Assembly: GCA_963835655.1 (NCBI GenBank)
Contig: CAWIGJ010000003.1
Span: 1,011,380-1,075,379, forward strand
Direction of reading: 5' to 3'
DNA from: an uncultured Chloroflexia bacterium
GTDB taxonomy: Bacteria > Chloroflexota > Dehalococcoidia > DSTF01 > JALHUB01
Length of the DNA: 64,000 nucleotides
The notes below the pieces were generated by a model that saw only the letters and a program-made list of their open reading frames with translations, ran no database searches and was not told the origin of the DNA. The translations under genes were made by a program, and so were the position numbers. Every line of letters begins with the position of its first letter. Position 1 is the first letter of the stretch. Below, piece after piece: positions 2,417 through 62,983 of the stretch.

Positions 2417-2618
2417 CGCCGCCTTCCTCTTCCGCTTCCTTCAGTCGCTCAATGCGGCGTCGGCGTTGCATCTCTGACGAAGTCACGATTGCGAGCGCGA
2501 GCAGTGTTCCCACCAGGAAGCCTAGCCATATCTGGCCTCGCTTAGTCAATGCCACGCTCCTTTCTGCGCCGAAGCCTGGCCGGCGCTCCGACCGCCAGCG
2601 TATTCGGAGGAACGTCAT
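2403..2618 (-). CDS. Small single-TM hypothetical protein (possible start TTG near 2549); its TM resembles CorC TM1
   Basis: The ORF overlaps the glmU stop. It contains a hydrophobic helix IWLGFLVGTLLALAIVTS similar to the WVALGLLVGTILLMALVTA helix of the downstream CorC. Confidence 0.25.
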   Translation of the reverse strand: MTFLRIRWRSERRPGFGAERSVALTKRGQIWLGFLVGTLLALAIVTSSEMQRRRRIERLKEAEEEGGGEQQ

Positions 2619-3935
2619 GGTTGACGATCGAGCCGGCCGCCGTTTGCGCCCCAGCGCCGACTTCGACCGGCGCGACGAGCATCGTGTCGCTGCCGATAAA
2701 GGCGCTGTCGCCGATGATGGTCCGGTGCTTGCTCACGCCGTCGAAGTTGCAGGTTATCGTGCCGGCGCCGATGTTCACCTCGTCGCCGACCTGCGCGTCG
2801 CCCACGTAGCTGAAGTGTCCCATCTTCGTGTTGCGCCCGATGCGCGAGTTCTTCACCTCAGCGAAGTTGCCGATGTGCACGCCGCTGCAGACGTACGCGC
2901 CGGCGCGTAGATGACTGAACGGCCCGACATCGATGTTGTCCTCCAGCGTCGACTCCTCGATGACCGACGAATCGACGCGGCAGCGAGAGCCGAGCGTAGA
3001 CTCGATAACCTGGCTGCTTGGCCCGATGACGCACTCCTCGCCGATGACCGACTTGCCGCCGAGATAGGTGTTCGGATAGACCGTTGTGTCCATGCCTATC
3101 GTCACATCGGCGTCGATATAAGTTGTTGCTGGGTCGACGATCGTAATGCCCGCCAGCATGTGACGCCGCCGGATGCGGTCTCGAAGCACCGCCTCGGCCT
3201 GTGCCAGTTGAATGCGGTCGTTGATGCCCAGCGCTTCCGCCGGGTCGCCAGCAGGCACGGCAAGGATGGTTGCGCCTTCGTCGACGCCAATGCTGACCAG
3301 GTCGGTCAGGTAGTACTCTCCGGCGGCGCTCCGCTGAATGCCCGGCAGGCGTGGCCAAAGCCATTCAGCGCGGAAGCAGTAGACGCCCGCGTTCACCTCG
3401 TTCCCCGCTAGTGTCGCCTCGTCAGCATCTGCCTCTTCGATGATTCCGCTCACTCGTCCCGAATCGTCGTGCTGTACGCGCCCCTGTCCGCGCGGATCGT
3501 CGACGAGAGCGGTCAGGAAGGTGAGGTCGGCCTTCGCCTCAAGGTGGCGTGTCATCAGAATCTTCGATTGTGCTTGCCGAGATGAGCGGGACATCCGCGT
3601 TGATGACGAGGATGTGTGCGCTGTCCTTCGCCGCGTCCATCGCCTGCGCGACGGCGTGCCCGGTGCCTAACTGCTCCGTTTGCTCCACCGGTCCGCACCG
3701 AGCCGTCGAGCGCGGCTGAGACGTGCGCCGCCTCATGCCCGACGACAACCACGTAGCGGGCCGGACGCTCGGCAGAGTCGAACGCGCTGCGGACGGCCGT
3801 TAGCACGTGCACCAGCATCGGCCGCCCGGCGAGCGAATGCAGTGCCTTCGGTTTCTTCGACCGCATGCGCTTGCCGAGGCCGGCTGCCAGAACAATCGCC
3901 GTCCAATCCTCTGCCATCAGCTCACCCTGCAACAA
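2542..3935 (-). pseudogene. glmU: glmU (bifunctional UDP-GlcNAc pyrophosphorylase / GlcN-1-P acetyltransferase) interrupted by two +1 frameshifts
   Basis: Three consecutive minus-strand ORFs in three different frames (3555-3935, 3539-3748, 2542-3594) together tile one colinear GlmU. They cover the N-terminal LAAGxGxRM motif, the EQLGTGHA motif and the C-terminal left-handed beta-helix hexapeptide repeats. Single-base indels at about 3686-3693 and 3551-3565 restore one frame. Confidence 0.75.
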
Positions 3936-11597: not shown

Positions 11598-12964
11598 CTA
11601 CCTGATGGCCTGAAGATCGCCCTGGTAGGCCTGGCCCGTCACCGAGATCAGCTTGTTGTCGAGGGCCTGTCTGGCGCCCCGGTTCTGAAGCGCCTGAATC
11701 GCGGCGTCGCAGGCTGCGTTCTGGTTTGCGTTGCTAGCCGGATAGACCGGCGGACAGGGCGCCGTCAGCGAAGCGTAGTCGACCAGATTGAACCAGTAGA
11801 AGAAGCCGAACGCGCTGATGTAGTCGAACTGCTCGTAGTTCGCCAGCTTCATCATCATCGAAAGGAACTGCTGGTCCAGGGGCGACCAGAAGCTGAACGT
11901 ATCGCGGGCGCGGACGTCGAGCAGGGGGTCCGGACCCAGAAACCGCGCAACGACGTCGACTTGTGCAACCAGTATTCAGAGATACTGGCGCCCTTCCCGG
12001 CCGCATGCGCCATGTCTGCCACCTGCTCGGCGACGCCGATTTCATCTAACCCCGGCTGAAGGTTGTAGACATGCGTGTCGATCTCGTCTAGGCCGGGAAT
12101 CGTCGCCAGGTCCGTCACATACGCCTTCCAGTCAGCCTGCCAGCTTCCTACGCCTGAGCCAAGCGGCATTGTCGTGTGGAGACCAGGAATCTGTGCCTGC
12201 TGCAGCGCTGCCACGAATTGCCTTATCATCTCGGTGTCGGCCTTCGGATCGCTCATGACACTCGACAAGGCTGGATTCTGCGAGTTAACTGCGTCGGTCG
12301 TCGGCTCCGTCTGCAGGAGCAGGTAATCGGGCTTGATCGTCTGTGCCACGAGGAGGTTGTGTGCGCTTCGCCGCTGCTCGTAAGTGGCGAGGTCGAGCGA
12401 CTTGTAATAGCCGCTGGCATCGATTGAATTCGCACTGCCGGTCGCAATCGTCAACAGTGGGTTGGCTTCGACGATCATCTTCATGCCCAGACTGTGGATC
12501 GCGTCTGCGACAGACGTGTAGTAGGCGATCCACGTCTGGACGGTCTGCTGTGCCTGAACAGGTGTCTGCCCGAGCGCTATGTAGAGATTCTCGTCGAATA
12601 TCGGAAAGCCGATCTGAACGGTGATGGCCGTCCCTCCCATATCGTGCTCGGCCTGGAGCTCTTCCTGCATTGCTGCCTTCACGCTGGGTTGGAGGATAGC
12701 GAAGCCGCCGTTGCCGTCCGCCGACAGCAACTCAGTGGCGTAGTTGACCGCGTAGGTGCTCCCGTCCCACGCTGAGCTGATCTCGCTGTCGTTCGCGCCG
12801 ATGATGCCTTGGAGGTCGTTGTACAGCGTCTCGTACTGGGTCGGAACCTCAGGCGGGACGACCGTGGGCGATAGTGTAGGAGCCGGAGCCTTCGATCCGC
12901 TGCAGCCAACAAGCAAACCAGCCGATGTTAGGACGAGCGTGGCAGTCAGGAAGAGAAATCGCAC
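11598..12964 (-). pseudogene. Lipoprotein (possible glycoside-hydrolase-like) interrupted by one frameshift
   Basis: The 369-aa ORF ends in frame noise. The next ORF (11598-11858) continues the same protein in another frame once extended upstream (…SISEYW then LVAQVDVVARFLGPDPLLDVRARDTFSFWSPLDQQFLSMMMKLANYEQ…). The junction is near 11960-11980. Lipobox LVGCSG. Confidence 0.55.
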
Positions 12965-13012
12965 CGTAATCGGCCCCTTTCTCTTCGAATCGCGGTCAAT
13001 CCCAGTGTAGCA

Positions 13013-18014: not shown

Positions 18015-19242
18015 CCTTGTGAAGACCGCCCTCGGTGCCCTACGCGACGCCTTCGACGTGTTCCGGCACACGTTCACGCTGGGCCTGCTCTCGCTGGGGC
18101 TCGCCATCGTCATCTGGTTCGTCGTCAGCGACGCCCAGAACCCGCCCAAGCGAGGCTTCTTCTCCGGCACCATCCCGGTGGAAGCAGTGAACGTGCCCCA
18201 AGGCAAGGCGCCAATCGAGGCCGCGCAGGTCCAGATCGAGATATCCGCAGATTCTGACGTCTGGAATGACCTCACCATCGGCGACTTCAAGGCAACAGTC
18301 GACCTCTCGAGCATGACCCAGGCCGAGGCCAATCTGCCGGTGCATGTTGCCGCCTTGCGAAACGATGTTGACATAATCCGCGCCGTCCCTTCGTCGGTCG
18401 ATGTCACGCTCGAGCTCACTACGACTGAGTCGAAGCCGGTGAAGATAAACACTGTCGCCGTGGCGCCTGTGGGCTACAGCGTGACGGATGAAAAGGTAAG
18501 CCCAGACACCGTGGAAGTCAGTGGGGCACAGAGTCTTGTCGCACAGACCGATGCCGTCTGGGTCGACCTCAACCTGACCGGCGTCCAGACAAGCATGGAG
18601 CGCGACTACACTCTGGTCGCCCGCGACAAGGATGGCCGCCAGGTGAACGTCAAAATCGAGCCGAATACGGCAAAGGTCGCTGTGACGGTCGTTAGGACGG
18701 AGTGGATGGAGACCTTCCCCGTCAACCCCTCGATTAGCGGCAATGTCGCTACTGGGTACTCCGTCACCGGTGTCGAGGTCGACCCTCCGTTCGTGAACGT
18801 TCGCGGCCCTGTCGACGTGCTCCAATCGATCTCGGTTCTGACGACCGATGCGATTCCCGTCGATGGGGCGGAATCGGATGTCCAGCGCAGCGTACAGCTT
18901 CGCCTTCCGCCGGGTGCCACGGTTGATGGCGGTAGCGAGGTTGTCGTCCACGTTCGCGTCGCGCCCGCGGAGGGGCAGCGCAATCTTCAGGTCGCCGTAC
19001 AGGTGATGGGCCTGAAGCAAGGCTTGGTCGCCACCCTCTCGAACGAGGATCTGGTCGCAACGCTTGCTGGCTCATTGCCGGCGCTCAATGCTCTCACCGG
19101 CGATGACGTGACTGCGACGATCGATGCTTCCAACCTGACCGTCGGCACATACTCGCTCACTCCCAAGATCAACCTGCCAGCAACCATGCAACTCATCGGC
19201 GTTTCCCCGCCTGAGATCCAGGTGACGGTCACTTCCCAATGA
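17998..19242 (+). CDS. cdaR: CdaR (YbbR-domain regulator of CdaA)
   Basis: The GTG at 17998 follows RBS GGAGGG in the ORF-track frame. N-terminal TM helix followed by repeated YbbR-like beta domains. Overlaps cdaA by 17 nt. Confidence 0.7.
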   Translation: MLSPGDLVKTALGALRDAFDVFRHTFTLGLLSLGLAIVIWFVVSDAQNPPKRGFFSGTIPVEAVNVPQGKAPIEAAQVQIEISADSDVWNDLTIGDFKATVDLSSMTQAEANLPVHVAALRNDVDIIRAVPSSVDVTLELTTTESKPVKINTVAVAPVGYSVTDEKVSPDTVEVSGAQSLVAQTDAVWVDLNLTGVQTSMERDYTLVARDKDGRQVNVKIEPNTAKVAVTVVRTEWMETFPVNPSISGNVATGYSVTGVEVDPPFVNVRGPVDVLQSISVLTTDAIPVDGAESDVQRSVQLRLPPGATVDGGSEVVVHVRVAPAEGQRNLQVAVQVMGLKQGLVATLSNEDLVATLAGSLPALNALTGDDVTATIDASNLTVGTYSLTPKINLPATMQLIGVSPPEIQVTVTSQ

Positions 19243-20614
19243 GCTCCCGCGCGCGTTCAGGGACGAAGCCAGCCGGTCAGCAAGCATCATCCGAAGCCGG
19301 ATACCCTATCGTAGCCCTCGTTGGCCGGCCGAACGTTGGGAAGTCTGCTCTGTTCAACCGCATAATCGGGGGACGCAAGGCCCTCGTCGAAGAAGCGGCT
19401 GGGACGACTCGTGATCGCGTTTACGGCGACATCGAATGGCGAGGAAAGCGCATTCGGCTCGTCGACACCGGCGGCCTGCTCATGGACGGCTCGTTGCCGT
19501 ACAGTGAACTCGTCCGAGCCCAGGTGGAGGTTGCGGCCGACGAAGCCGAAGTAATCCTCTTCGTGGTCGATGGTAAGGAGGGCCTGACCGCCGGGGACCG
19601 CGATGTGGCCGATCACTTGCGACGCGTCGACAAGCCTGTCATCCTCGTCGCCAACAAGACCGAGAGCGAGAGCCGTCGCGAGTCGGCCGTCGAGTTCTAC
19701 GAGCTTGGCCTCGGCGAGCCGTTTGCCGTCAGCGCCTTGCACGGCATGGGCGTCGCTGACCTGATGGACATGCTGGCTGACTTGCTTCCAGAGTCGCTAG
19801 CGCCGGAAGCGCTCGACAACCCTTTCAATCGCCATCGTCGGACGGCCGAACGTCGGCAAGTCGATGCTGACGAATGCTATCCTCGGCGAGGAGCGTGTCA
19901 TCGTCAGCGAGACGCCCGGCACGACGCGCGACAGCGTTGACACTCTCTTCGAGTTTGATGGGCATAAGCTCACCCTTATCGATACGGCAGGCATCCGTCG
20001 AAGAGGCCGTATTGAGGTTGGCGTGGAGAAGCACTCGGTGCTGCGAGCGCAGGATGCGGCGCAGCGGGCCGACGTGGCGCTCGTGCTTATGGACGCCGGC
20101 GAAGGGCTCGCGGCGCAGGACGCGCACATTGCCGGGCTTATCGTGGACAGCTTCGTCGGAATGGTGCTGGTAGCCAATAAGTGGGACTTGGCGCCGCCTG
20201 AGCCTTCCTATCGAAAGGAATTCGAACGTCTCCTTCGCTACCGCCTGCGCTTTGCGCCCTGGGCGCCGCTTTGCTTCGTCTCCGCGAAGGAGCGCACCGG
20301 CGTCGACGAACTGCTGAAGGAGGCCCTGCGCGTCGGTGAGGAGCGACAGAAGCGATTGCCGACAGCTGAGGTGAACGCCGTCGTACAGCGGGCGATCGGC
20401 GAGCGAAGCCCGCCCTTCGACGCAGGGCCGCAAGCTGAAAGTGCTCTACGTGACGCAGGCTCAAACAGCGCCGCCGACTTTCGTCTTCTTCGTCAACGAT
20501 GCCTCCTTGCTCCACTTCTCCTATCGTCGCTATCTTGAGAACCGGTTGCGGAAGGCTTACGGCTTCGAAGGCACGCCGCTGAAGCTCATCTTCAAGAGCA
20601 GAGGGGAAAAGTAG
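19239..20614 (+). pseudogene. der: GTPase Der/EngA (tandem GTPase domains plus KH-like C-terminus) carrying two frameshifts
   Basis: Domain 1 is in the 19239 frame with G1 GRPNVGKS. Domain 2 with its G1 (IAIVGRPNVGKSMLTNAILGEE) continues in the 19864 frame. The C-terminal RKLKVLYVTQAQTAPPTFVFFVNDASLLHFSYRRYLENRLRKAYGFEGTPLKLIFKSRGEK lies in a third frame and ends at 20614. The shifts are near 19821-19835 and 20415-20435. Confidence 0.75.
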
Positions 20615-21247
20615 ATGGCCTGGCAGCTTATCGTCGCCGCCATCATCGGCTATCTGCTCGGCTCCATTCCCGGCGGCTACGTCATGGGGCGCCTGACCCG
20701 CGGCATCGACGTACGTGACTACGGCAGCGGCAAAACGGGCGCCACCAACGCGATGCGGACACTCAGTCTTTGGGCTGTTCTCGGCGTGCTGGTGATCGAC
20801 ATCGGCAAGGCAGCGGCGGCGGTTTCCATCGCCCGCGTTCTCTCAGATAGCGCATGGGCGCAGGCGTTGGCGGGCATAGGTGCGTTTGCCGGACACGTCT
20901 GGCCGCTGTACCTTGGCTTCCGCGGTGGACGGGGTGTCTCCGCTGCTTACGGCTCCCTCCTTGCGATGAACCCACTAGCCAGCCTGGCGCTGCTTCCCAT
21001 CGCCTTGCTGATTATCGCTGTTACCCGCTACATGTCACTGATGTCGATTTCGATGGCGCCGATTGCCGCCGCGCTCTTCCTGGCGCTGGCAATAGCAGGC
21101 GTGTTGCCTTATGCCTACTCTGTCTACGGCATGGTCGTTGCGGCGATGATCGTCATCCTTCACTACGACAACATCCGCCGCCTGCTTTCAGGCACCGAGC
21201 GGAAGATCGGTCAGAAGGAGCTGCAACGGACCGGAGGCCGTTGGTGA
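20615..21247 (+). CDS. plsY: Glycerol-3-phosphate acyltransferase PlsY
   Basis: 210-aa polytopic protein with PlsY motifs (GSGNPGATN-like GSGKTGATN). Confidence 0.85.
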   Translation: MAWQLIVAAIIGYLLGSIPGGYVMGRLTRGIDVRDYGSGKTGATNAMRTLSLWAVLGVLVIDIGKAAAAVSIARVLSDSAWAQALAGIGAFAGHVWPLYLGFRGGRGVSAAYGSLLAMNPLASLALLPIALLIIAVTRYMSLMSISMAPIAAALFLALAIAGVLPYAYSVYGMVVAAMIVILHYDNIRRLLSGTERKIGQKELQRTGGRW

Positions 21248-21768
21248 AAAGCGTAGCTGTCGTCGGCTCCTCAAGCTGGGGCACCGTCCTCGCGGTCCTC
21301 TTCGCCCGCAACGGCTTGCCGGTCCGCCTCTGTGCCTATGACGAGGCCGATGCGGAAGCGCTTCGTCGTGGCGGCGAAAACGCGCGACTTGAGCCTGGCC
21401 TGCGTTTCCCTCCTGTACCGCGCCTTGGAATCGCGGCTGGCGCCCAACCGCTGACCCTCCTCGGCCTCGCGGGCGTCGGCGATCTCATGGCCACCTGCTA
21501 CAGCCCCCTCAGTCGCAACCATCGCGTCGGCATCGAGCTGGCGAAAGGACGCTCGCTCGACGAAGCTCTTGCCTCACTCGGCCAGGTCGCTGAGGGCGTG
21601 GCGACGACCGTTGCAGCCCGTGGACTGGCTCTTCGCTACCGGGTCGAGATGCCTATCATACAGATGACCTATCAGGTGCTCTTCGAAGGGCTGGACCCGC
21701 GCCGCGCCGTCGCCGAATTGATGCTTCGGGCGCCCCGTCACGAACTCCACGGAGTCGGCCGGAAGTGA
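21244..21768 (+). pseudogene. gpsA: gpsA (NAD(P)H-dependent glycerol-3-phosphate dehydrogenase) with an in-frame internal deletion
   Basis: The N-terminal Rossmann fragment (VAVVGSSSWGTVLAVLFARNG…LEPGLRFPPVP) is fused directly to the C-terminal fragment (RLGIAAGAQPLTLLGLAGVGDLMATC…VEMPI…). About 150 central residues, including the KGIE catalytic region, are absent. The ORF is 175 aa against about 330 expected. Confidence 0.7.
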
Positions 21769-22229
21769 TCACGGTCCGTCCCCTGTGGCCCAACGATATA
21801 CCTCAGTGTGAAGCCATCCTGCGCGGCCTGCCAGAGTGGTTCGGCTTCGAAGCCGCTCTCCTCCAGTTCGTCGATGACCTTGCGCGTCTGCCCGGTCTCG
21901 TGGCTGTCGAAGGCGACGACGTTCTCGGTTTCCTCGCCTTGCACGACCACAGCGCCGAATCGTCCGAGATCCACGTTCTCGCTGTCCACCGCGGTCGTCA
22001 CCGCCAGGGAATCGGCCGCGCCCTGCTGGAAGGCGCGGAAGCCGGCCTGCTCGCCAGGGGCGTCAAGCTGCTTCAAGTGAAGACGCTTGGCCCGTCGAGC
22101 GATGATGCCAACTACGCCAAGACACGCGCCTTCTACCTGGCGATGGGCTTTTCCCCGCTGGAGGAGACTTCAGCTTTCTGGGGCCAACAGCAGCCCACTT
22201 TGCTCATGGTGAAACGCCTTTGCCCTTGA
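21765..22229 (+). CDS. GNAT-family N-acetyltransferase
   Basis: Acetyl-CoA binding motif RGRHRQGIGRALL. GTG start overlapping the gpsA stop. Confidence 0.75.
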   Translation: MITVRPLWPNDIPQCEAILRGLPEWFGFEAALLQFVDDLARLPGLVAVEGDDVLGFLALHDHSAESSEIHVLAVHRGRHRQGIGRALLEGAEAGLLARGVKLLQVKTLGPSSDDANYAKTRAFYLAMGFSPLEETSAFWGQQQPTLLMVKRLCP

Positions 22230-49624: not shown

Positions 49625-49701
49625 GGGCCGCTAGCTCAATTTGGCAGAGCAGCTGACTCTTAATCAGCCGGTTCCAGGTTCGAGTCCTGGGCGGCCTACC
49701 A
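49625..49701 (+). tRNA. tRNA-Lys (anticodon CTT)
   Basis: Cloverleaf folds as GGGCCGC/GCGGCCT acceptor, GCTC/GAGC D-stem, GCTGA/TCAGC anticodon stem with loop CTCTTAA, and a CCAGG/CCTGG T-stem with a TTCGAGT loop. CCA is encoded. Confidence 0.9.
49655..49701 (+). repeat. attL core: the 3' 47 nt of tRNA-Lys, identical to 62920-62966
   Basis: Exact 47/47 match: gactcttaatcagccggttccaggttcgagtcctgggcggcctacca. Confidence 0.85.
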
Positions 49702-49714
49702 GAAAACGAATCTA

Positions 49715-49740
49715 GAAAGGCCCCCTTCGAGGGGCCTTTC
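49715..49740. terminator. Perfect hairpin GAAAGGCCCC cttcga GGGGCCTTTC, likely a bidirectional terminator between tRNA-Lys and the first element gene
   Basis: 10-bp perfect stem. T-rich flank on the minus strand (TTTCTAGATTCGTTTTCTGG). Confidence 0.45.
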
Positions 49741-49758
49741 TGCTTACCTTCCTTAGCA

Positions 49759-49778
49759 TTTGCTAACATTTTGCTAAC
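49759..49778 (+). repeat. Two direct copies of TTTGCTAAC (plus an overlapping TTAGCA/TGCTAA inverted repeat) just inside attL; candidate integrase arm sites
   Basis: ccTTAGCAtTTGCTAACatTTTGCTAACgc. The same 9-mer pair occurs at 62768-62789. Confidence 0.5.
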
Positions 49779-50169
49779 GCTCGTGTGGGCGGTAGTGTCC
49801 CACTAGAAACGCCAAGTGCGCGGTACTCATCAGGAAGGCGGTCGCCTTCGGTCCGACCGACGTTGAACCTGTGGCCTCCCTACGGTGCATAAAGAAGAGA
49901 AGATTGGTCGTTAGGAGAGCGAGGGCGGCTCTCTCTATATCCGTTTTGTGCGAAGCGTCCGCCGCGACGACACAAGCCGCTATATAGTCAAAGGCCTTGT
50001 CCGAATGAAGTTCAGGCTTAGAGACGTTCAGTTGTTTTGCTAACTGACGGAGGGTCTCAAGCACAATCTCATTTCCAGTATTTGGGTCTGTGTCAGCATC
50101 TTCCACTTGCTTGAGCCAAGCGACAGCCTCGGCTTCCCCCAATAGATCCATTTCGCTGTTCTCATCCAT
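49774..50169 (-). CDS. Hypothetical protein (131 aa), element cargo
   Basis: ORF only. No recognisable motif. Confidence 0.4.
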   Translation of the reverse strand: MDENSEMDLLGEAEAVAWLKQVEDADTDPNTGNEIVLETLRQLAKQLNVSKPELHSDKAFDYIAACVVAADASHKTDIERAALALLTTNLLFFMHRREATGSTSVGPKATAFLMSTAHLAFLVGHYRPHER

Positions 50170-50173
50170 CTTG

Positions 50174-51316
50174 TCACCTACTGAACACTAGCGCCGCCAC
50201 CCGCTCTGCGGCGTCCTCTTGCAAGCCGGGGATAACGGCGCTGTAGACGTCGAGGGTAAAGGCGACGCTGCTATGTCCGAGCCGTTCACTGACCACTTTC
50301 GGGTGAACGCCAGCGGCCAACGCAAGGCTGGCGTGACCGTGGCGCAAATCATGCAGCCTTATCGTGGGCAGGCCAGCCGACTTCACGAGGAGCTGGAAAT
50401 GGCCCGAGAAGGACTCGGGGTTTACGGGGCCGCCGTCCGGCGCCGTGAATACCAGCGCCTCGGCGTCGGGCGCCCCTAGTCCAAGAGTCATGCGATCTTC
50501 CAGCACCCGCTTGCGGTGAGCCCTGAGAACGGCGATCGTGGTCGTGTCTAGGCTGATCTTGCGGTTGCCCCGGCCTGTCTTCGGCTCGCTCGAAAGGATT
50601 TGCCCCTTCACGCTGATAAGCGTCTGATTGACGCTGAGGTGGCCAGCCTTGAGGTCTAGGTCACACCACCTTGCCCCCAGTGCTTCGCCGCGTCTCATGC
50701 CCGTGGTGGCGAGTAGGAACAGGGGCTGGTAGTAGTAGTCACCTTCTATATGTCGGAGGAATTGGCCCAGTTGGTCAGCGTTCCATGTCCGAAGGGTATG
50801 GTTACGCTGCTGCTTTGGTGGGCTTGCAGCAGCGGCCACGTTCCTAGTCACGTCACCCCATTTGAGGGCTTCGCCCAATGCGCGGTGCAACGTCGCGTGG
50901 CAATAGCGCACCGTTCGGGGCGATAAACCGCCCTTGCCCTGGCGCCGGCCGCTTTCCAGGAGTTCAGCGTAAAGGCTATTCAACTGGCCGGGGGTGAGTT
51001 TCTGCAACGGCGTGCTACCTATTCGCGGCTTGATATAGCTTTCGACTATCAGCCGGTAGCCCTCGAGCGTTGACGCGCGGACGCTGGCCCGCGCCTGATC
51101 CAGCCATCGCGTCAGGAACATGGCCAGCGTTTCCCGTGAGGGCTCTACAAGGTTGCCCGTGGCGTAGCGCTGAAGCGTCTCCGTTAGCCCGGCCTCGCAC
51201 TCTTTCCGCGTACGAAATCCGCCCTTAGTCCGCTGCCGACGCCGGCCCTTTTCGTCGCGGCCAACGTCGAGCGTATAGCTCCAGGTCCTGCCCCTCTTGC
51301 CGACGTGTCCTTTCAT
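50174..51316 (-). CDS. Tyrosine-type phage integrase
   Basis: Catalytic box R…HDLRH…LGHSSVAFTLDVY. Adjacent to attL and tRNA. Start probably the internal Met (MKGHVGKRG) next to the upstream gene stop. Confidence 0.85.
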   Translation of the reverse strand: MKGHVGKRGRTWSYTLDVGRDEKGRRRQRTKGGFRTRKECEAGLTETLQRYATGNLVEPSRETLAMFLTRWLDQARASVRASTLEGYRLIVESYIKPRIGSTPLQKLTPGQLNSLYAELLESGRRQGKGGLSPRTVRYCHATLHRALGEALKWGDVTRNVAAAASPPKQQRNHTLRTWNADQLGQFLRHIEGDYYYQPLFLLATTGMRRGEALGARWCDLDLKAGHLSVNQTLISVKGQILSSEPKTGRGNRKISLDTTTIAVLRAHRKRVLEDRMTLGLGAPDAEALVFTAPDGGPVNPESFSGHFQLLVKSAGLPTIRLHDLRHGHASLALAAGVHPKVVSERLGHSSVAFTLDVYSAVIPGLQEDAAERVAALVFSR

Positions 51317-52221
51317 GATTGCCCTCCTCTGTGTTCTCGCGCCCATGCGCGATCCCGACAGCGCTTGTCATGGTACTCTTGCAGCCCGTGGGCGACGCCG
51401 AAGAGACGCCCGCAACCTTTGCAGAGCTGCCATCGTTTACCGGCCGCTAGGTCTTCATAGAGTTGCAGCCACATGGCAGTTTCTAAGTCGCCACAGCTCG
51501 ATCCACCTTTGATTCTGCCACCATCAATGGAGAGCCCTAGCCGAACGCTCTCCAACCGTTCCCAGAACACCGACGCCAAGCGAACCTGCTTCTCCTCTAG
51601 GTCCGGATCGTCGTCGAACTCCTCTGCGTCTCGTACCTGCTTCACGAGCCGAACGGCCTCAGAGAACTCGATGGCTTGTATAAGCAAGCGCCAGAGAATG
51701 ATCCTGACTTTGCCGTCCGCGTCCTCCAGATCGGCGAAGATGGGGCGCGGCGGTGATTGCCGAGTGTAGATAATGCCGCCCGGTAGAGGTCGCGGAAGGA
51801 CTGGCCCCCAATTGACGACGAACGCTCGCGCCTCGCGCTGGATCGCCCCGTTGAACGAGGCGTATATGGCAAGGGTTTCCGCAGAATCTTCGCCGCTCGG
51901 TGCCGACCTTTGCCCTGCGTCCTGCGCATGCTTTCCTAGCGCGGCGAAGTCGCTGTAGGGCTGCGGCGTCAGTCTGAGCGGCTCATACCCCTCGCGGCTG
52001 AAGTCCACGAGCGCGCCGTCAAACTGTAACGCGACGGGGTCGCCGCCGACGCGCCAGTGCTGCCTGTTTCCCTTCGGCCACCAAAAGACCGTGAAAGTGT
52101 CGTCGCGTTTCTGCATTTCGGCCCCTATCTCGGCGGAAATCGGCTTGGCCTCGTCTATTATTGCACGGTACCATACCAGTGTCAAGCGATTAGAAGGGGA
52201 TAGGAGCAGAAAAAATGACAC
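51313..52221 (-). CDS. Hypothetical protein with a C-terminal CGNR-like zinc-finger (CxxC…F…C-R-x-R…HR)
   Basis: C-terminus RWQLCKGCGRLFGVAHGLQEYHDKRCRDRAWAREHR resembles the zf-CGNR signature. The N-terminal ~35 aa may be an over-extension. Confidence 0.4.
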   Translation of the reverse strand: MSFFLLLSPSNRLTLVWYRAIIDEAKPISAEIGAEMQKRDDTFTVFWWPKGNRQHWRVGGDPVALQFDGALVDFSREGYEPLRLTPQPYSDFAALGKHAQDAGQRSAPSGEDSAETLAIYASFNGAIQREARAFVVNWGPVLPRPLPGGIIYTRQSPPRPIFADLEDADGKVRIILWRLLIQAIEFSEAVRLVKQVRDAEEFDDDPDLEEKQVRLASVFWERLESVRLGLSIDGGRIKGGSSCGDLETAMWLQLYEDLAAGKRWQLCKGCGRLFGVAHGLQEYHDKRCRDRAWAREHRGGQS

Positions 52222-52439
52222 AGAAGAATGCGATGGCGGTAGACGTTCGCCGGCTGCCGCCGACGGTCACCGTTCCCGAAGCGGGTAGCTTGCTGGGAAT
52301 CAGTCGCGGGTCCGCTTACGAGGCCGCCCGTACGGGGCAAATCCCGGCCCTGAGAATCGGGGCGCGCCTCGTGGTGCCTACGGCGCAGTTGCTCCGGCTT
52401 CTAGAGGGTGTGCCCACCGAGCCGAAGCCGGGCGCCTGA
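52215..52439 (+). CDS. Excisionase/AlpA-family HTH DNA-binding protein
   Basis: VTVPEAGSLLGISRGSAYEAARTGQIPALRIGARLVVPTAQLLRLLEG matches the excisionase-family HTH pattern. Divergent from the integrase. Confidence 0.65.
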   Translation: MTQKNAMAVDVRRLPPTVTVPEAGSLLGISRGSAYEAARTGQIPALRIGARLVVPTAQLLRLLEGVPTEPKPGA

Positions 52440-52549
52440 GCCGACAAGGGCCGTGAGCACGTTGACTGAACTCCGTCCTGCGCGCGCTTTGTGCCCGCGC
52501 TGCCAATTTCGGTTCGAGCTTCTTTCGGAAGTCCGGGTAGAGGATAGCG

Positions 52550-53527
52550 TTGCCTGCCCCAAGTGCCATGTCGTGGTTTGCCCCGAACGGGAGCCGCTCG
52601 ACCAAAGTTGGTGGGCTTGGGCGAATAGCAGAGGGGCAGACCGTGAATCTTGACGACATTCTCCCGCTTCTCGATTCGCCCGCCGGCGATCCTTTCGGCG
52701 GGAAGCCGGTTGCGCCGGACCGTCACACGTGGTTTTTCTGCCCCGTTCATGCGGATGGCAGCAAGCACGGGCGCCGCTCGGCAACCTTTCACCCCCGCTA
52801 TGGCCTGACCTGTTTCGCCGGCTGCGAAAGGCGCGACATCATTGCCGCGCTCCAAAAGCGCGGCGGCGTTCATCCCGCCCATACACCGAGCGACAGCAGC
52901 CCCGCGCATCGCTCGAGGTCAAAAGCGATCCCTGGCCGGATCGTCGCCCGCTACCCGTACCCCGACGAAAGGGGCCAGTTGCTGTATGAGGCCCTACGCA
53001 AGGAGACGGCTGACGGCAAGACATTCCTTTTGCGGCGGCCTAACGGCATGGGCGGCTGGATTTGGAACATTGACGGCATGCGCCGTGTCCTCTATCGGCT
53101 TCCCGAACTCCTGGCGGCTGACCCTAGCGCCTTTGTTTTCATCTGTGAGGGCGAGAAGCGCGTTGATGCGCTTGCTCGGCTCGGCCTCACGGCGACAACA
53201 AACGTAGGCGGCGCCGGGAAGTGGAAACCCGCCTGTAACGACTATCTTCGCCGCCGGCGCGTCGTGATCCTTCCCGACAACGATCCGCCAGGAGCCGAAC
53301 ACGCTGAGCAAGTGGCGCGCTCACTTATGGGCGTCGCCGCTGAAGTCCGCGTGATCGTGCTGCCCGGCCTGCCTTTCAAGGGCGACATCATTAACTGGCT
53401 TGCTGCTGGCGGCAACCGCGAAATACTCCTAGCCCTGGCAGAGCGCCCGCCGACGGAGCGGCCATCTTCCGCCGACTTCCCGAAAGCCGTCCGGGTGAGC
53501 GTCCTTAACGCCGCAGGAGTTGCCTGA
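52550..53527 (+). CDS. Phage/plasmid primase (CHC2 zinc finger plus Toprim)
   Basis: CPVHADGSKHGRRSATFHPRYGLTCFAGC (CHC2). Toprim glutamate in ICEGEKRVDAL and DxD in ILPDNDPPG. Confidence 0.75.
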   Translation: MPAPSAMSWFAPNGSRSTKVGGLGRIAEGQTVNLDDILPLLDSPAGDPFGGKPVAPDRHTWFFCPVHADGSKHGRRSATFHPRYGLTCFAGCERRDIIAALQKRGGVHPAHTPSDSSPAHRSRSKAIPGRIVARYPYPDERGQLLYEALRKETADGKTFLLRRPNGMGGWIWNIDGMRRVLYRLPELLAADPSAFVFICEGEKRVDALARLGLTATTNVGGAGKWKPACNDYLRRRRVVILPDNDPPGAEHAEQVARSLMGVAAEVRVIVLPGLPFKGDIINWLAAGGNREILLALAERPPTERPSSADFPKAVRVSVLNAAGVA

Positions 53528-54750
53528 TGCCTCAGCCTAGCACGCGGGAGGAAGTTGCCATCGTCGCATTCGGTGACGGCTCGCACACCGACCGGGAGCA
53601 AGTTCTGGAAGTGGTAAGCCGCTGGCTGAGAATCGGCGACCTCGAGGCGGTCGACGTCATCATGGCAACCGCTATCGCAATCTACCTGCCGGGCGATCCC
53701 CTTTGGCTTCACGTTGTAGCTCCACCTGGAGGCACCAAGAGCGAGTTACTGCGGTCGCTACAGGGGCCAAGGGTCGTCAGCATTTCCACCATGACGCCGC
53801 AGACGCTCATCTCGGGCCTCAAGGGGCACGGTGAGGACATCGACCTGCTGCCTAAGCTCGATGGCAAACTGCTTATCATCAAGGACTTCACGTCCATTCT
53901 TTCAAAGAAGTCAGAGGACCAGGCGGCAATCTTCGCCGACTTGCGCGAAGCATATGACGGCTATCTTGAAAAGTCCTTCGGCTCCGGCGTCGGGATAAAG
54001 GGCTACAATGCCAGTTTCGGACTCATTGCGGGCGTCACGCCCGCGATAGACATGTTCCGGACTGTCCATTCCTTGCTCGGCGAGCGCTTCCTTCGGGTCA
54101 ATGTTGTTGGCGATGAACAGGGCGCCGTCACGCGCTCCAGTGAGCTTGAGGGCCAAGAGAAGACAATGCGCCAAGAGCTCGGCGCCGCTGTCGGCGGCTA
54201 TCTCACGCATGCCGGCGAATGGGTTGACCCCGACGTGCTGGTAGAAGAGCGTTTCCTTCAGCAGCTCCGGGCACTGGCACAGCTCACGGCTGCCCTGCGT
54301 TCCCCCGTCGCTCGCGACCGTCAGCACCACGTCCTCTATTCGCCTCAGCGTGAGATAGGTACGCGGCTCGTTAAGCAGCTTCAGAAACTTGGCAAGGCGC
54401 TCGCCAACTGGCGGGAACGCCTGATAGTCAGCGCTGAAGATTACGCTACCGTTCGTCGCGTCGCGCTTGACTGCATACCGAGCGGACGAATTGCCGCCCT
54501 GCGGCCGCTCCTAGAGGCGGATACGTGGCTATCGACAAAACAGGTAGGGCAAGCCGCTAACCAGCATACCGACACCGCAAACGAGCATCTTCATGACATG
54601 TGGATGCTCCATCTCCTACAACGCGAAGGTGACGCCGCCTATTCATGGGCAGTAGCGGATGAAACCCGCCAACTGCTAGGAAGGGCGGCTATCGACCTAC
54701 GGACGCAAAACACCCTGAGTAGGCTAGATGAGGCAATGGAATGCCCTTAA
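53527..54750 (+). CDS. Primase-associated P-loop NTPase / replicative helicase-like protein
   Basis: Walker-A-like VVAPPGGTKSE and Walker-B-like KLLIIKDF. Start overlaps the primase stop (ATGA), suggesting translational coupling. Confidence 0.45.
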   Translation: MPQPSTREEVAIVAFGDGSHTDREQVLEVVSRWLRIGDLEAVDVIMATAIAIYLPGDPLWLHVVAPPGGTKSELLRSLQGPRVVSISTMTPQTLISGLKGHGEDIDLLPKLDGKLLIIKDFTSILSKKSEDQAAIFADLREAYDGYLEKSFGSGVGIKGYNASFGLIAGVTPAIDMFRTVHSLLGERFLRVNVVGDEQGAVTRSSELEGQEKTMRQELGAAVGGYLTHAGEWVDPDVLVEERFLQQLRALAQLTAALRSPVARDRQHHVLYSPQREIGTRLVKQLQKLGKALANWRERLIVSAEDYATVRRVALDCIPSGRIAALRPLLEADTWLSTKQVGQAANQHTDTANEHLHDMWMLHLLQREGDAAYSWAVADETRQLLGRAAIDLRTQNTLSRLDEAMECP

Positions 54751-54811
54751 TTGTTAAGACTCAAGGACGCAAAACACCCTGTGCAAGCACGAGGACAAAT
54801 ATAATTTGTCC
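54701..54811 (+). promoter_or_regulatory. Origin-like region: two 17-bp direct repeats GGACGCAAAACACCCTG (54701-54717 and 54765-54781) followed by the AT-rich palindrome GGACAAATATAATTTGTCC (54793-54811)
   Basis: Read directly. Located at the 3' end of, and just after, the helicase-like gene. Confidence 0.5.
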
Positions 54812-55091
54812 TTTTAGAACGTCGGCGGCTACTGGGGGTACTTTGCGCCCCTGGCCTACTGCCTGCCAACAAGCGCGTGTGCTACCCGCTCCGGCCACAA
54901 AATCACGCGGCGACAGCCGCCCAAGCGGTAGGCTCAGTGGATGCGGCAGAACGAAGGCCCTGCCATGACTGCCACCAAAGAGGACTCGGCCCGTGAGCAA
55001 AGCGTTAGCAGGCAAGCGGGATCGAATCTGGAAAAGGCCCAGCAGCGGATTGGTAGTCAGCGGGATTACACACTAACGGAGTCTGACTAGG

Positions 55092-55631
55092 ATGGCCGTC
55101 AAAGCCGAAATAGAGCCCGCCACAGGCGCGCTAGAGCCGCGATCTATCTCGCCGGCGCAACGTCAGCAGCGCCAGCTCGCAGCCGTGAAGACGGGTCTGT
55201 ATGTAAAAGCCCCTGCTGGCCTCAGGCTCAGGTCGCGAAGAGTGCGCCGCTTGGTAAGCAAAATGCGCGCGGTCATGCCGTGGCTTGACGATAGCGACTT
55301 GCCAGCTTGTAGGGCGTGGGCAGAGTTCGAGATTCTAGGCGCTACTGCCTTCGCCGATCTCATTGAGCGCGGCATGACAAACGACAATGGCGATCCGCGC
55401 CGGTTGCTGGGCGAATTCAGGCAACTTCGGCAGGCGCAACTCGGCTATGAGCGCGGTCTAGGAATGACGCCAGCCGCCCGCATGTCCTTGCGGGTAGGCG
55501 ACAGCCGGGCGCGTTCGTTCGATAGGGGCGGCGTTGCCGCATCTGCTGAGGACGTGGCAGCGCTTGAAACGCGCGTCCTGGCGCGTCTAGGGCCGCAAGG
55601 AACGGCGGCAGAGGTGAACAGTGGAGACTAA
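55092..55631 (+). CDS. Terminase small subunit (P27-family-like)
   Basis: 179 aa. Overlaps the terL start by 11 nt. Sequence character fits the P27 small terminase family. Confidence 0.55.
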   Translation: MAVKAEIEPATGALEPRSISPAQRQQRQLAAVKTGLYVKAPAGLRLRSRRVRRLVSKMRAVMPWLDDSDLPACRAWAEFEILGATAFADLIERGMTNDNGDPRRLLGEFRQLRQAQLGYERGLGMTPAARMSLRVGDSRARSFDRGGVAASAEDVAALETRVLARLGPQGTAAEVNSGD

Positions 55632-57000
55632 CGACGCCCTGGCGCAATCGCCCTTGTTGTGGGCGCTGGAGCGGCTTCACCGCCTCAACGGACGGCCTTT
55701 CACGCTCTATGACTACCAGCTTCACGTCCTGGCAAACCGCTCGCCGCGTGTGCTGGTCCTGAAGTCGCGACAAGTCGGGCTATCGACAGCGGCGGCGATC
55801 AGGGCGGCTCACGAATTGCTGTTCAACGAACGGGCGATGGTGCTGGTAGTGAGCCGCGATCAGGACGCCGCCGGCCACTTCCTTGCGACCGTCCTTGACA
55901 TTCTCGACTCACTTGCTGAGCCGCCTGACTTCACGCGGCGCGGCGTCTTTGAGGCGCAACTAAAGAACGGATCACGCATCCTGTCGCAAGCGGCGACAGG
56001 CAAGGCAGGGCGCGGCGTTAGGGCGACACTCGTGGTCTGTGATGAATTCGCCTTTATGGATTATGACGCGGCGATCTTCCGCGCCGTCAGCCCGACGATA
56101 GCGCGCGGCGGGCGGCTAATCGTGATCAGCACGCCCAACGGTCAAAACAATCTCTTCTTCAGACTGTGGCACGGCAACGAAGGCGGCGATTGGTCAAGGC
56201 ATCGCGTCCACTGGAGCGACTGCCCGGCGTTTGATCCGGCATGGTTTGAGCGGGAACGTCCGAACTATACCGCCCGCGACTGGGCGCAAGAGTTCGATTT
56301 GGACTTCGTTGCGAGTGGCGGCGCTGCCTTCCGTCCTGAGGACGTTGACGCCATGGCCGATGGATGGCAGGGCTATCAGCCGCGCAAGGATGATGAGCGG
56401 TTTGCGATCTATGTCACGGGCGTTGACGTCGGCCGCAAGCATGACGCGACCGTGCTAATCACCCTGAGGACTGACAGGCGACCGTTCCAGATCGTCGCGT
56501 TCGAGCGGCTAGTGGGCTGTCCCTACGCTCAGCAGCAGGCCTTGATCGAGGCGCGGGCCGAAGCCTACGGCGGCAAGGTGATAGTCGAGAGCAACGGGAT
56601 CGGCGACCCGGTTCTCGAGGCGCTGCATTGCTACGCCGATCCCTTCGTAACGACTCAACAGAGCAAGGCGCACGGCCTGACGCGGCTCATTCAACTGGTA
56701 GAGCAGCGCCAGATCAAGGGCGACATTCCCGAGTTGCTGTCAGAACTTCGCTCCTACGAATGGGAGGATTCGCGGCTCAAAACAGACTGTGTAATGGCCC
56801 TGATGCTCGCTTGCACGGGCATCGTCGAGTATTACGTATCGTTCCAAGAGCTTCAGGACATGATGGACGAAGGCTCGCGCGGGCGGGGAACTATCGTCAC
56901 AAACTCTGACGGCACGCGCTGGTTGAATTCGAGTTGCGTTGAGGACGACGCCCGAGCGGATGAAGCGGGCGCGTTCCATAGCATCCCGACAGTCTTTTGA
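55621..57000 (+). CDS. Terminase large subunit (ATPase plus RNaseH-like nuclease)
   Basis: Walker A region VLKSRQVGLST, Walker B LVVCDEFAF, and the nuclease Asp cluster YVTGVDVGRKHDATVL. Confidence 0.75.
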   Translation: METNDALAQSPLLWALERLHRLNGRPFTLYDYQLHVLANRSPRVLVLKSRQVGLSTAAAIRAAHELLFNERAMVLVVSRDQDAAGHFLATVLDILDSLAEPPDFTRRGVFEAQLKNGSRILSQAATGKAGRGVRATLVVCDEFAFMDYDAAIFRAVSPTIARGGRLIVISTPNGQNNLFFRLWHGNEGGDWSRHRVHWSDCPAFDPAWFERERPNYTARDWAQEFDLDFVASGGAAFRPEDVDAMADGWQGYQPRKDDERFAIYVTGVDVGRKHDATVLITLRTDRRPFQIVAFERLVGCPYAQQQALIEARAEAYGGKVIVESNGIGDPVLEALHCYADPFVTTQQSKAHGLTRLIQLVEQRQIKGDIPELLSELRSYEWEDSRLKTDCVMALMLACTGIVEYYVSFQELQDMMDEGSRGRGTIVTNSDGTRWLNSSCVEDDARADEAGAFHSIPTVF

Positions 57001-57028
57001 CACTGCCGGGGTAGGAAAGGAAACGGAA

Positions 57029-57391
57029 ATGGCGACAGGAACCTCAAACGAGAAAGTCAGGGAGCACCTGAAGACGCTGAGTGAACAGATGCGCCTTCGC
57101 TACAACGTGCTGGAGGACCGGCGCGCGGCTGAAGAGGCGGGCAACTCAGTGATTCCGCCAGGGCTGCCAGGAGAAACATTCGGCTTCAAGACGACAACGC
57201 GAATCGACGCGCCGGCCATCATGAAAGTTGACCCGAAGGCTAACGCTGCCATGAAGCAGCGGCTCCAGAACGTGTTGGGCGTTGCGAAGCTGCTTGGTGT
57301 TCCCGAAGACAAGGCGCGAGAACAGTTCGAGCGGGAACAGGCAGGCCAGCGGCCGCTCGATAACACCGTGCCGGGATTCAAGGGAGTGTAA
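57029..57391 (+). CDS. Hypothetical phage protein (120 aa)
   Basis: RBS GGAAAGGAAACGG. ATG at 57029 follows terL. Confidence 0.45.
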   Translation: MATGTSNEKVREHLKTLSEQMRLRYNVLEDRRAAEEAGNSVIPPGLPGETFGFKTTTRIDAPAIMKVDPKANAAMKQRLQNVLGVAKLLGVPEDKAREQFEREQAGQRPLDNTVPGFKGV

Positions 57392-57394
57392 ACC

Positions 57395-57715
57395 ATGCAA
57401 ACGGGAGACGTACACCGCGTCGATTTTGCCAACGTTCGGCGCTACGCCGACAGCGAACTCGACCGCTGCTGGAGTTGCCGCAACTTGGCGCGCTGTTCTG
57501 GCGATTGTCACTCGCACGCCGAGCCGCCCGTCGCTGTAAAGGTTAACGGCTCAGCGGATGCGCGGGCGAGACAGCAACTCGATGAAGTCCTGACGGTCGG
57601 CAAGGGCGCCGGTCTTAGTGAAGCACAAGTCCTCGAGCAAAGGCTGAGGCAGCTTCAGGGCAAGCCGCCGGTTCCCGATGGAACTTTCGGCTTCAACGGG
57701 GGTCACGCCCAATGA
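57395..57715 (+). CDS. Hypothetical Cys-rich protein (CWSC…C…C…H)
   Basis: ORF in the structural/packaging module. Possible zinc-binding. Confidence 0.4.
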   Translation: MQTGDVHRVDFANVRRYADSELDRCWSCRNLARCSGDCHSHAEPPVAVKVNGSADARARQQLDEVLTVGKGAGLSEAQVLEQRLRQLQGKPPVPDGTFGFNGGHAQ

Positions 57716-57930
57716 CCCCGCTCATCGAGGAATTGGCGGCGCGCGTCGAAAACGGCCAAATCCGCCTATCGCGACTGCCGCCGGGCGAAACGCGCGATCA
57801 AGTGGCGGCGCGACTGGAGAAGGATCGCGGCGACTTGCAGCGCTGGCTCGACGTAGAAGAGCTTGAAAGAAACAGCCGGGCGAACAGCGCTGAGCCCCTG
57901 CCGTGGGACTTGCGACGGAAGGAACTGTGA
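57712..57930 (+). CDS. Hypothetical protein (72 aa)
   Basis: Overlaps the preceding gene by 4 nt. Confidence 0.35.
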   Translation: MTPLIEELAARVENGQIRLSRLPPGETRDQVAARLEKDRGDLQRWLDVEELERNSRANSAEPLPWDLRRKEL

Positions 57931-58140
57931 ATCGCGTTAGGTGCGTGAAGTGAACGAAGTGAATTTCGGCTCGGACAGGTGTGGCTTCACCTCCTTGTTG
58001 TCTGCCTGTCCGGTCGGCGTGTCGGGCCGGGGTGTGTGACGCGCGACTTCCATCGCGTTGCCATAACGAGCTTGACCTCCTTGAGCTCCCCGGTCCGGAG
58101 CGCTTCAAGTCAGGGTGACGCAATTTGAAAGGATAGCCCA

Positions 58141-59748
58141 ATGGCAGACGATTCAACCCTGAGTATCCTAATTCAGGCTGAGGACCAAGCCTCGAGCGCC
58201 CTTCAAAGCGTCGGCGGCTCCCTTGACGACCTTCAATCAAAGGCGCAAGGCGTCACTGACGCCGCAGGCGACACGGCGGGTGCCATGTCTGACGTTGGGG
58301 ACACGGCGGCAGATGCCGGTTCAAGCCTTGAGGATGCGGGCGGGGCTGCGGCTGACACCGGGACAAACCTTGAGGATGCGGGTAGTTCTGCCGACAGTGC
58401 GGGGATGAGCATCGGCGACCTGACCTCACAGGTTGGTGATCTGGCGGGCGGTCTAAGCGGCCTCACGCCCGAAATGGGAACGTTAACCGCTGGATTAGGC
58501 GGGCTATCTGGGGCAGTGGCCGGACCAGCGGGTATAGCAGCGGCTATTGGCGCTGGAGCGGCGGCCTTCATCGGGCTAGGCGAAGCGGGCGGTCAGTGGG
58601 CAACTGAGGTGATGACCGTTAAAGACATCACCAATATGAGCACGACTGACGTAACGAAGTGGGGCCTTGCGCTGGAAGACGTGGGCGGCGACATGAATCA
58701 GCTCGCTACGATCTCCTACATGCTGGAGCGCCGATTGCAAACGCAAGTAGATGCCGAGAACGCAGGGCAGACGGGTAGTTTGGCGTTGGCGAAAGCGATG
58801 GAGGACACCGGAACGGCCTACAAGGATGCCGAAGGGAACATGCTCGACATGGGTACTATCCTGCCCAATCTGCTAACGAATCTGACAGCCATGACGGATA
58901 AAACGCTGGCCGCTAATGATGCCACGGTAATTCTCGGACGCGGCGGGCGTGAAATGCTAGTGGTACTTCAAGAATGGCCTGATCTGGCGGCCGCCGTCAA
59001 CCGGCAGACTGCCGAGTTGGATACCACGACTGAAGAAGGGGCGAAACACGCCATCGAGTACAACATCGCCATGACGGACATGAAAGACGAGCTGATCATG
59101 CTCGATCAGGACGTTTTACCCGCGTTTACCACATTCCTAGAGGCCCTACCCGTCGGCTTCCATATGGCTGGCGACGCCATGCACCTTCTGTTTAGAGAGA
59201 TCGTGGACGGAGCGCCGTTTTTGCGCTCGATGGTCGATACAGTCTCGGCCGGAGCTGACATACTACACGGCGACTTCAAGGGCGCCGTAGACGACGGAAA
59301 GAACGCCCTGCGAGATATGATTCCCGGCTATAACATGGCGCAGGACGCTATTGCCGGCGTCAACGATGAAACCAAGGATTTGTCTAGTTCGCTCGACGCC
59401 CAATCTGAAAGCCTGAAATCCTCGACTCAGCAATGGGCCGACTACAACTCAGAGATTGAAGCGGCTCTCAGCATGGGCATGACGCTGGAAGAGGCCGTGA
59501 CCAGCGTAAGTCATCCCGGTGTAGACATCACCGGCCAAGAGGTGAACGTTCCTACCTATGACTACGGCGGCTTTGTGCCCGGGGCGCCGGGTGCGCCGCA
59601 ACTTGCAGTTGTGCATGGCGGCGAGACGGTGACGCCAGCGGGCCAACAGCAGTTCGGCACCTTCCAGAACTTCGGTAATATCAACGTCTACCCCCAGAGC
59701 GGCGGCATGGCCGACATGATGGCAGAAATAGCGAAGCAGGTGAGCTAA
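58141..59748 (+). CDS. Tape-measure-like / tail structural protein (Gly/Ala/Asp-rich repeats)
   Basis: N-terminal degenerate repeats DxGxxxxDxG followed by Gly-rich hydrophobic segments, then a helical region. Position is after the terminase genes. Confidence 0.35.
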   Translation: MADDSTLSILIQAEDQASSALQSVGGSLDDLQSKAQGVTDAAGDTAGAMSDVGDTAADAGSSLEDAGGAAADTGTNLEDAGSSADSAGMSIGDLTSQVGDLAGGLSGLTPEMGTLTAGLGGLSGAVAGPAGIAAAIGAGAAAFIGLGEAGGQWATEVMTVKDITNMSTTDVTKWGLALEDVGGDMNQLATISYMLERRLQTQVDAENAGQTGSLALAKAMEDTGTAYKDAEGNMLDMGTILPNLLTNLTAMTDKTLAANDATVILGRGGREMLVVLQEWPDLAAAVNRQTAELDTTTEEGAKHAIEYNIAMTDMKDELIMLDQDVLPAFTTFLEALPVGFHMAGDAMHLLFREIVDGAPFLRSMVDTVSAGADILHGDFKGAVDDGKNALRDMIPGYNMAQDAIAGVNDETKDLSSSLDAQSESLKSSTQQWADYNSEIEAALSMGMTLEEAVTSVSHPGVDITGQEVNVPTYDYGGFVPGAPGAPQLAVVHGGETVTPAGQQQFGTFQNFGNINVYPQSGGMADMMAEIAKQVS

Positions 59749-59757
59749 CACGGGGCA

Positions 59758-59985
59758 ATGTCTATGGCCTTAGTGCGCTGTGGCCGCCCGTACTGTGGCG
59801 GCGCAATCTTGCCCGGCGAGTCCGCCTGTCTCCTTTGCGGCCGCTGCCCCCGCAAACTTGAGCCTATCCGCCTTCCCGTTCGGCGCCGCGAAAAGACGTT
59901 CTCAGTGCTGGCGGCGATAATGGTAGAGGTCCCAGGTGCCTTCCGTTCGCTGAGGGCGGCTGTACCCGAGGGGGTAGACTTCTAG
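59758..59985 (+). CDS. Small zinc-ribbon protein (CxxC…CxxC)
   Basis: CGRPYCGG…CLLCGRC. Confidence 0.35.
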   Translation: MSMALVRCGRPYCGGAILPGESACLLCGRCPRKLEPIRLPVRRREKTFSVLAAIMVEVPGAFRSLRAAVPEGVDF

Positions 59986-60098
59986 TAGCACGTCGCGCCC
60001 GGGCGCTCTAGGTACTGACCGACCGCCTTCTTTCCGACCCCCAAAGCTAGGAACCGCTCGTTTTGCCGCCAGGATCGAAATCTGGGCGTTTCCCGCGC

Positions 60099-62966: not shown

Positions 62967-62983
62967 GTGAAGGATCGCTGGCC

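Follow-up and report, generated by a model that had tools for sequence, protein, structure and literature searches.

Single-base insertions that split glmU in a Dehalococcoidia metagenome contig are probably patchy assembly errors

In a 64,000-nucleotide stretch of DNA from an uncultured member of the Chloroflexota (class Dehalococcoidia), hereafter the window, the coding sequence for the bifunctional enzyme GlmU changes reading frame twice. The question raised by this locus is whether the two frame changes were introduced during sequencing and assembly or whether they are mutations carried by a cell that lives without the gene. The original prediction had offered both alternatives; the comparisons described below favor indel errors of the assembly and provide no positive support for a tolerated loss of glmU.

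The gene occupies positions 2542-3917 on the minus strand and comprises 1376 nt, corresponding to 458 codons plus two surplus bases, from an ATG at 3917 to a TAA stop at 2544-2542. The start lies at the ATG at 3917, which matches relatives that begin with MxxxWTAI, rather than at the TTG at 3935, the upper limit given in the original prediction. Six-frame translation and tblastn searches of the window placed the repaired GlmU protein on three collinear segments of 100% identity in three minus-strand frames, in agreement with the earlier claim that a full-length GlmU can be recovered by changing frame twice. The first segment (3690-3917, minus strand; tblastn frame -3; residues 1-76) contains the nucleotide-binding motif LAAGLGKRM and covers positions 1-52 of the Pfam NTP_transf_3 profile, and the second (3560-3688, minus strand; frame -1; residues 77-119, [12 protein letters not shown] ... 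[10 protein letters not shown]) covers profile positions 66-105. The third segment (2542-3558, minus strand; frame -2, aligned at 2545-3558; residues 120-457 and the TAA stop) matches Pfam Hexapep and NTP_transferase and encodes the remaining uridyltransferase domain together with the left-handed beta-helix acetyltransferase domain. By Pfam, the N-terminus of the NTP-transferase domain is distributed over pieces 1 and 2, whereas piece 3 combines its remainder with the hexapeptide repeats.

When the window was aligned at the DNA level with the corresponding locus of its nearest relative (L001, on contig_71652 of ENA ERZ25039477), exactly two gaps were found within glmU, each representing one additional base in the window. 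Both events were insertions, with no mixture of insertion and deletion. At the first site (3688-3691), one of the four bases ccgg is surplus (minus-strand GAC[C]GGTG versus GA-CGGTG in L001), and at the second site (3559-3560), one of the two bases aa is surplus (minus-strand GAT[T]CTG versus GA-CCTG in L001). These sites fall inside the two intervals to which the shifts had originally been assigned, 3686-3693 and 3551-3565. The codon phase is constant in the relative, whereas in the window it rotates by one at each insertion. As deposited, glmU is therefore spread over three frames with stops in every wrong frame and lacks a single uninterrupted open reading frame (ORF). We also searched metagenome contigs with a pattern spanning the second site that allowed either one or two bases; the search returned four unrelated loci and no glmU, so neither allele of this site was independently sighted.

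Removal of both surplus bases yielded a protein of 457 aa, which is the length found in most close relatives. With NF010934 this repaired protein reached 526.1 bits (cut-off 450) and with TIGR01173 it reached 519 bits (cut-off 366.85), residues 7-445 being aligned to positions 3-438 of the 452 positions of the NCBIfam profile. A homology search with the repaired protein identified P0001, encoded on the same contig_71652, as the best full-length GlmU match at 88% identity, and the alignment with 15 relatives was free of gaps at both junctions. Both GlmU domains were present across the three pieces (Pfam NTP_transf_3, NTP_transferase, and Hexapep), including the nucleotidyltransferase signature L-x2-G-x-G-x-R-M and the hexapeptide beta-helix that define membership in the family, and invariant GlmU columns were kept at G13 L14 G15 K16 R17, at Q82 L83 G84 T85 G86 H87, and at N381-N390. 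Compared with the bifunctional GlmU described by TIGR01173 and NF010934, the repaired window protein is full-length and collinear, carries LAAGLGKRM and [10 protein letters not shown] as well as the C-terminal hexapeptide beta-helix, has 457 aa, and shows 88% identity to the nearest relative, whose gene neighborhood it shares; it differs in that its reading frame is broken twice as deposited. Judged by its sequence, the window gene encodes a GlmU of the ordinary type (UDP-N-acetylglucosamine diphosphorylase / glucosamine-1-phosphate N-acetyltransferase).

The pattern of substitutions in glmU was that of a gene under normal constraint. In comparison with the nearest relative, dN/dS was 0.18, 0.22, and 0.14 in segments 1, 2, and 3, respectively, and third codon positions accounted for 66%, 61%, and 68% of the substitutions in the same segments. 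Among the 176 columns that are invariant in the 15 relatives, the repaired GlmU deviates at two; on the same measure, intact relatives deviate at 0-8 columns and the most distant one at 21. Signs of relaxed constraint, namely an excess of non-synonymous substitutions, lost codon periodicity, or further lesions, were not detected in glmU relative to these proteins. Given that no sign of decay was found, the two lesions are either extremely recent or not biological.

We next considered whether the broken copy might be dispensable because another exists. The window and L001 share the gene order LysM protein, carboxyltransferase, small ORFs, glmU, CNNM, and DprA, and glmU is intact in L001. This shared order indicates that the window glmU is the syntenic orthologue rather than a spare copy. 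No second glmU was found within the 64-kb window by tblastn with the repaired protein, nor did the public protein collection contain a second GlmU more than 88% identical to that of the window. These results do not support the suggestion that the locus is a pseudogene of a duplicated gene. Other relatives recovered by the genome-contig search showed identities of at most 77% and belonged to the Dehalococcoidia lineage.

The longest ORF of the deposited glmU consists of residues 120-457 preceded by 13 out-of-frame N-terminal residues. A truncated GlmU product of 337 aa (P0023, MTRHLEAK...), which starts at M121 and is 100% identical, is recorded in the public protein collection from a contig of 1,435,755 bp; the frameshifts thus belong to the deposited assembly and did not arise from cutting out the window. 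One alternative is that the pieces are separate proteins, for example that the C-terminal ORF of 337 or 350 aa serves as a stand-alone GlcN-1-P acetyltransferase. Isolated C-terminal fragments of Escherichia coli GlmU keep acetyltransferase activity, and both a start codon and a complete beta-helix domain are present on the third piece. However, the uridyltransferase domain is left in three parts that could not fold, and such a split architecture was seen in no relative. The likelihood of this explanation is accordingly very slight.

Recoding would offer another route to a full-length protein, by programmed +1 frameshifting, quadruplet decoding, or transcriptional slippage. All four insertions found in glmU and in a second gene, der (described below), are of the +1 type, so that one mechanism could in principle rescue every one of them. 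The candidate four-base codons nevertheless differ (ACCG, GATT, CTCG, and CCCT), and none of the sites presents a slippery codon with a stop or rare codon or a homopolymer of slippage length. Programmed sites are conserved, whereas here the surplus base is absent from relatives at every site. Both tRNAs in the window are ordinary. Quadruplet decoding and +1 programmed frameshifting were rejected, as the sites have no codon in common and are not conserved, and recoding in any of its forms has a negligible probability.

If the glmU insertions were artefacts, equally fresh defects would be expected in other genes, and such defects were found: two insertions in der, a deletion in gpsA, and a probable one-base deletion in a hypothetical gene. 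The der (engA) gene (19239-20614, plus strand), which encodes a ribosome-biogenesis GTPase, is divided like glmU into three frames by single-base insertions at ~19812-19815 (GCGCT[C]GAC) and 20416-20417 (CCC[T]TCG), and its surplus bases (~19814 and 20416-20417) were judged against five other contigs. The pieces lie in frames +3, +1, and +2 and separate GTPase domain 1, GTPase domain 2, and the KH-like domain. Since the first start codon available to the second piece (19864) comes after GRPNVGKS, separate translation would leave the second GTPase domain without its P-loop, a further point against reading the fragments as independent proteins. Once repaired, Der has 457 aa, is 94% identical to the Der of the nearest relative, and reaches 530 bits with TIGR03594 (cut-off 306.7); its gene shows dN/dS of 0.11-0.15, and the protein deviates at 4 of 271 invariant columns. 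Elsewhere in the clade, an ENA contig of 103,807 bp encodes a 310-aa product (P0248) that fuses the Der KH-like domain with PlsY; the fusion points to either a frameshift in der or a missing stop codon between der and plsY in another public assembly.

The gpsA remnant (21244-21768, plus strand) is of a different kind. An in-frame stretch of 492 nt (164 codons) is missing, with the junction at 21414-21416. It corresponds approximately to residues 58-221 of the relatives' protein and takes in half of the Rossmann domain as well as the catalytic region; in five related contigs, GpsA has 338-342 aa. A search for a direct repeat flanking the deletion junction found none. What is left of gpsA has 91-93% identity to the nearest relative and shows dN/dS of 0.11-0.23, indicating purifying selection. 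This deletion could be a mis-assembly or mis-join, or else a real, very recent variant. Downstream (21765-22229, plus strand), the window and its nearest relative both encode a GNAT acetyltransferase, and more distant relatives have instead an altronate-dehydratase-like pair (GD_AH and SAF) on the opposite strand (L082 13031-14457). The difference is a lineage-specific gene replacement.

The third additional case concerns a lineage-specific hypothetical gene (11598-12964, minus strand) with a probable one-base deletion at ~11937-11938, where the window, unlike the relative, shows a shift in the third-position phase of substitutions. Codon-periodic substitutions in this ORF indicate that it is a real gene. 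It lies in ~1.4 kb of extra DNA between the genes for RNase PH and comEC (11598-13012, minus strand), which is shared with the nearest relative only and is absent from L082-L085; the hypothetical protein encoded there, ~455 aa long, matches no family in Pfam or NCBIfam. In the nearest relative, glmU, der, and gpsA are all intact, and der and gpsA are also intact in four more distant contigs.

We surveyed about 45-50 ORFs of the window with Pfam, 15 of which were also compared with relatives. For the region at 8.5-26 kb, the comparison included the proteins of L082 (NCBI GCA_936414985.1) and of L083, whose contig name is of the k141 short-read style. Fifteen genes in this region matched at full length in a single frame, and dispensable genes such as comEC and those for GNATs, NUDIX, and HEAT proteins were intact. 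At 26-64 kb, dnaX, recR, recO, metG, prfA, hisS, relA, pheST, and others looked complete. Overall, the surveyed ORFs with a family match look full-length, and a few without a match are uninformative. A sliding-window codon-score plot of the frames was too noisy for calling frameshifts and was replaced by Pfam coverage, tblastn, and the phase of third-position substitutions. The alignments with L082 and L083 (75-80% identical) contained many compensating +1/-1 gap pairs no more than 12 nt apart, which represent alignment noise; the only uncompensated gaps were the two in der.

The nearest relative provided a mirror image of these defects. A second locus on contig_71652 (L086) carries intact der (457 aa), plsY, and gpsA (338 aa), yet the same contig has ~27 single-base indels within a 4.6-kb patch (L086 955-5541) that covers the hypothetical gene, comEC, and comEA. 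Further indels were found in dnaX (two, compensating) and in ybaB (one), at L086 19081-19552 and 20249, a part of the contig that corresponds to L001 1-3050. At all ~30 of these sites, the window has a constant codon phase and intact full-domain ORFs. Substitution density and periodicity inside the patch are normal, which indicates that its indels are not the lesions of an old pseudogene; they are a clear case of patchy consensus error in public sequence. The window and its nearest relative therefore each contain broken genes that are intact in the other, and the comparison demonstrates patchy indel errors in one or both of the assemblies. Because contig_71652 carries these indels where the window is intact, the assemblies of this lineage do carry patchy indel errors, which strike different genes in each. 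The name of contig_71652, which is in the style of the long-read assembler Flye, and contig sizes of 0.47 and 1.44 Mb suggest that both are long-read metagenome assemblies.

These comparisons bear directly on the possibility that the mutations are real and very recent, making glmU, der, and gpsA nascent pseudogenes whose loss is tolerated. Such a loss would be tolerated if the genome contained a second copy elsewhere or a divergent analogue, if polyploid cells retained intact copies, or if the organism depended on partners. Two lesions per gene are what would be expected once a gene is dead, a model of uniform random error is rejected (see below), and the gpsA defect is a clean structural deletion of 492 nt. 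Cultivated Dehalococcoides, which belong to the class Dehalococcoidia, lack peptidoglycan. On the other hand, a LysM-repeat protein gene lies 4 kb from the window glmU, and der is required for 50S ribosome assembly irrespective of the cell wall. The repaired genes show neither an excess of substitutions nor a loss of codon periodicity, all relatives, even the one whose GlmU is 88% identical, have these genes intact and conserved at the corresponding locus, and the protein collection offers no second, closer GlmU. Dispensable neighbors are undamaged, and real mutation would demand the near-simultaneous loss of three indispensable functions without any other trace. We consider this explanation unlikely. 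The idea that the organism tolerates the loss of glmU thus lost ground on several counts at once: normal purifying selection, a syntenic locus, equally fresh damage in der and gpsA, and intact dispensable neighbors.

Genuine pseudogenes of reductive evolution, as in Mycobacterium leprae and recent endosymbionts, affect mainly dispensable genes, and relaxed constraint adds substitutions to them. The window resembles such cases, as known in general, in having more than one inactivating lesion per gene and in keeping the syntenic position, but it differs in that the damage is confined to normally indispensable genes plus one hypothetical gene and in that relaxed constraint was undetected. That indispensable genes are damaged and dispensable neighbors are intact argues against natural decay, which would not be expected to hit indispensable genes only. 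It is highly unlikely that the lesions are real and that a Dehalococcoidia lineage has been caught in the act of inactivating glmU, der, and gpsA. If it were so, the cell would have to possess a hidden backup, in the form of divergent analogues or unequal genome copies, or depend obligately on others for UDP-GlcNAc and glycerol-3-phosphate. A free-living bacterium devoid of GlmU, Der, and GpsA would then challenge assumptions about minimal gene sets and would bear on the nature of the Chloroflexota cell envelope.

Patchy consensus indel errors of the deposited metagenome assembly are a very probable source of the surplus bases in glmU, and we infer that the defects in glmU, der, and gpsA arose in sequencing or assembly rather than in the cell. 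Assemblies from long reads or at low coverage commonly contain artefactual, frameshifted "pseudogenes," above all where coverage is low (Cooley & Wright 2024, PMC11017572; Cusco et al. 2021, PMC8103633), and an assembly pipeline with caveats bearing on spurious frameshifts has been described (PMC12313526). As in the spurious pseudogenes of those two reports, single-base indels in the window split conserved and even essential genes, the defects are patchy, and different genes are hit among the assemblies of close relatives (PMC11017572, PMC8103633); unlike in them, the insertions lie outside long homopolymers, and insertions make up four of the five small indels. Assembly error best accounts for the damage to conserved genes including der, the sparing of dispensable neighbors, the lack of relaxed constraint, and the mirror-image relative.

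Several observations do not fit a simple form of this explanation. The four insertions in glmU and der lie in runs of one to three bases, not in the long homopolymers typical of Nanopore errors. If four events were placed uniformly, they would form two pairs no more than 602 nt apart with P ~0.001, so that a uniform error model is rejected and patchiness must be invoked. Clustering of insertions within a gene also fits the decay of a real pseudogene, and a 492-nt in-frame deletion such as that in gpsA is atypical of base-calling error. A possible motif common to the four insertion sites (CCGG, GANTC, TCGA, and TCGA), for example a methylation site, is suggestive, with n = 4.

Assembly error would leave the biology of the locus unremarkable. 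The source assembly was probably built from long reads, and in the organism itself this position most likely encodes an intact, bifunctional GlmU of 457 aa. Such an enzyme would acetylate GlcN-1-P through its C-terminal beta-helix domain and would then uridylylate the product through its N-terminal domain, yielding UDP-GlcNAc by the usual route. With good confidence, then, the split of glmU is not a real biological feature. On this reading, the window assembly and its nearest public relative both contain single-base indels in patches, in addition to at least one deletion that is suspicious, and frameshift-aware checking is needed before gene content is inferred from them; a conclusion such as "no glmU, hence no peptidoglycan" would be unsafe with assemblies of this kind.

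Toward its far end, the window contains an integrated element of ~13.3 kb (49655-62967), inserted in a tRNA-Lys (CTT) gene (49625-49701). A 48-nt direct repeat corresponding to the 3' part of this tRNA gene (49655-49702 and 62920-62967) delimits the element, which is followed by a tRNA-Leu (TAG) gene (62984-63068). It encodes two tyrosine integrases (50174-51367, minus strand, and 60232-61143, plus strand), a large terminase (55618-57000), and several ORFs without a family match, and is probably a small prophage or phage-like island. Two tandem units of 42 nt, 76% identical to each other (58306-58389), were found inside the 540-aa ORF of the element (58129-59748).
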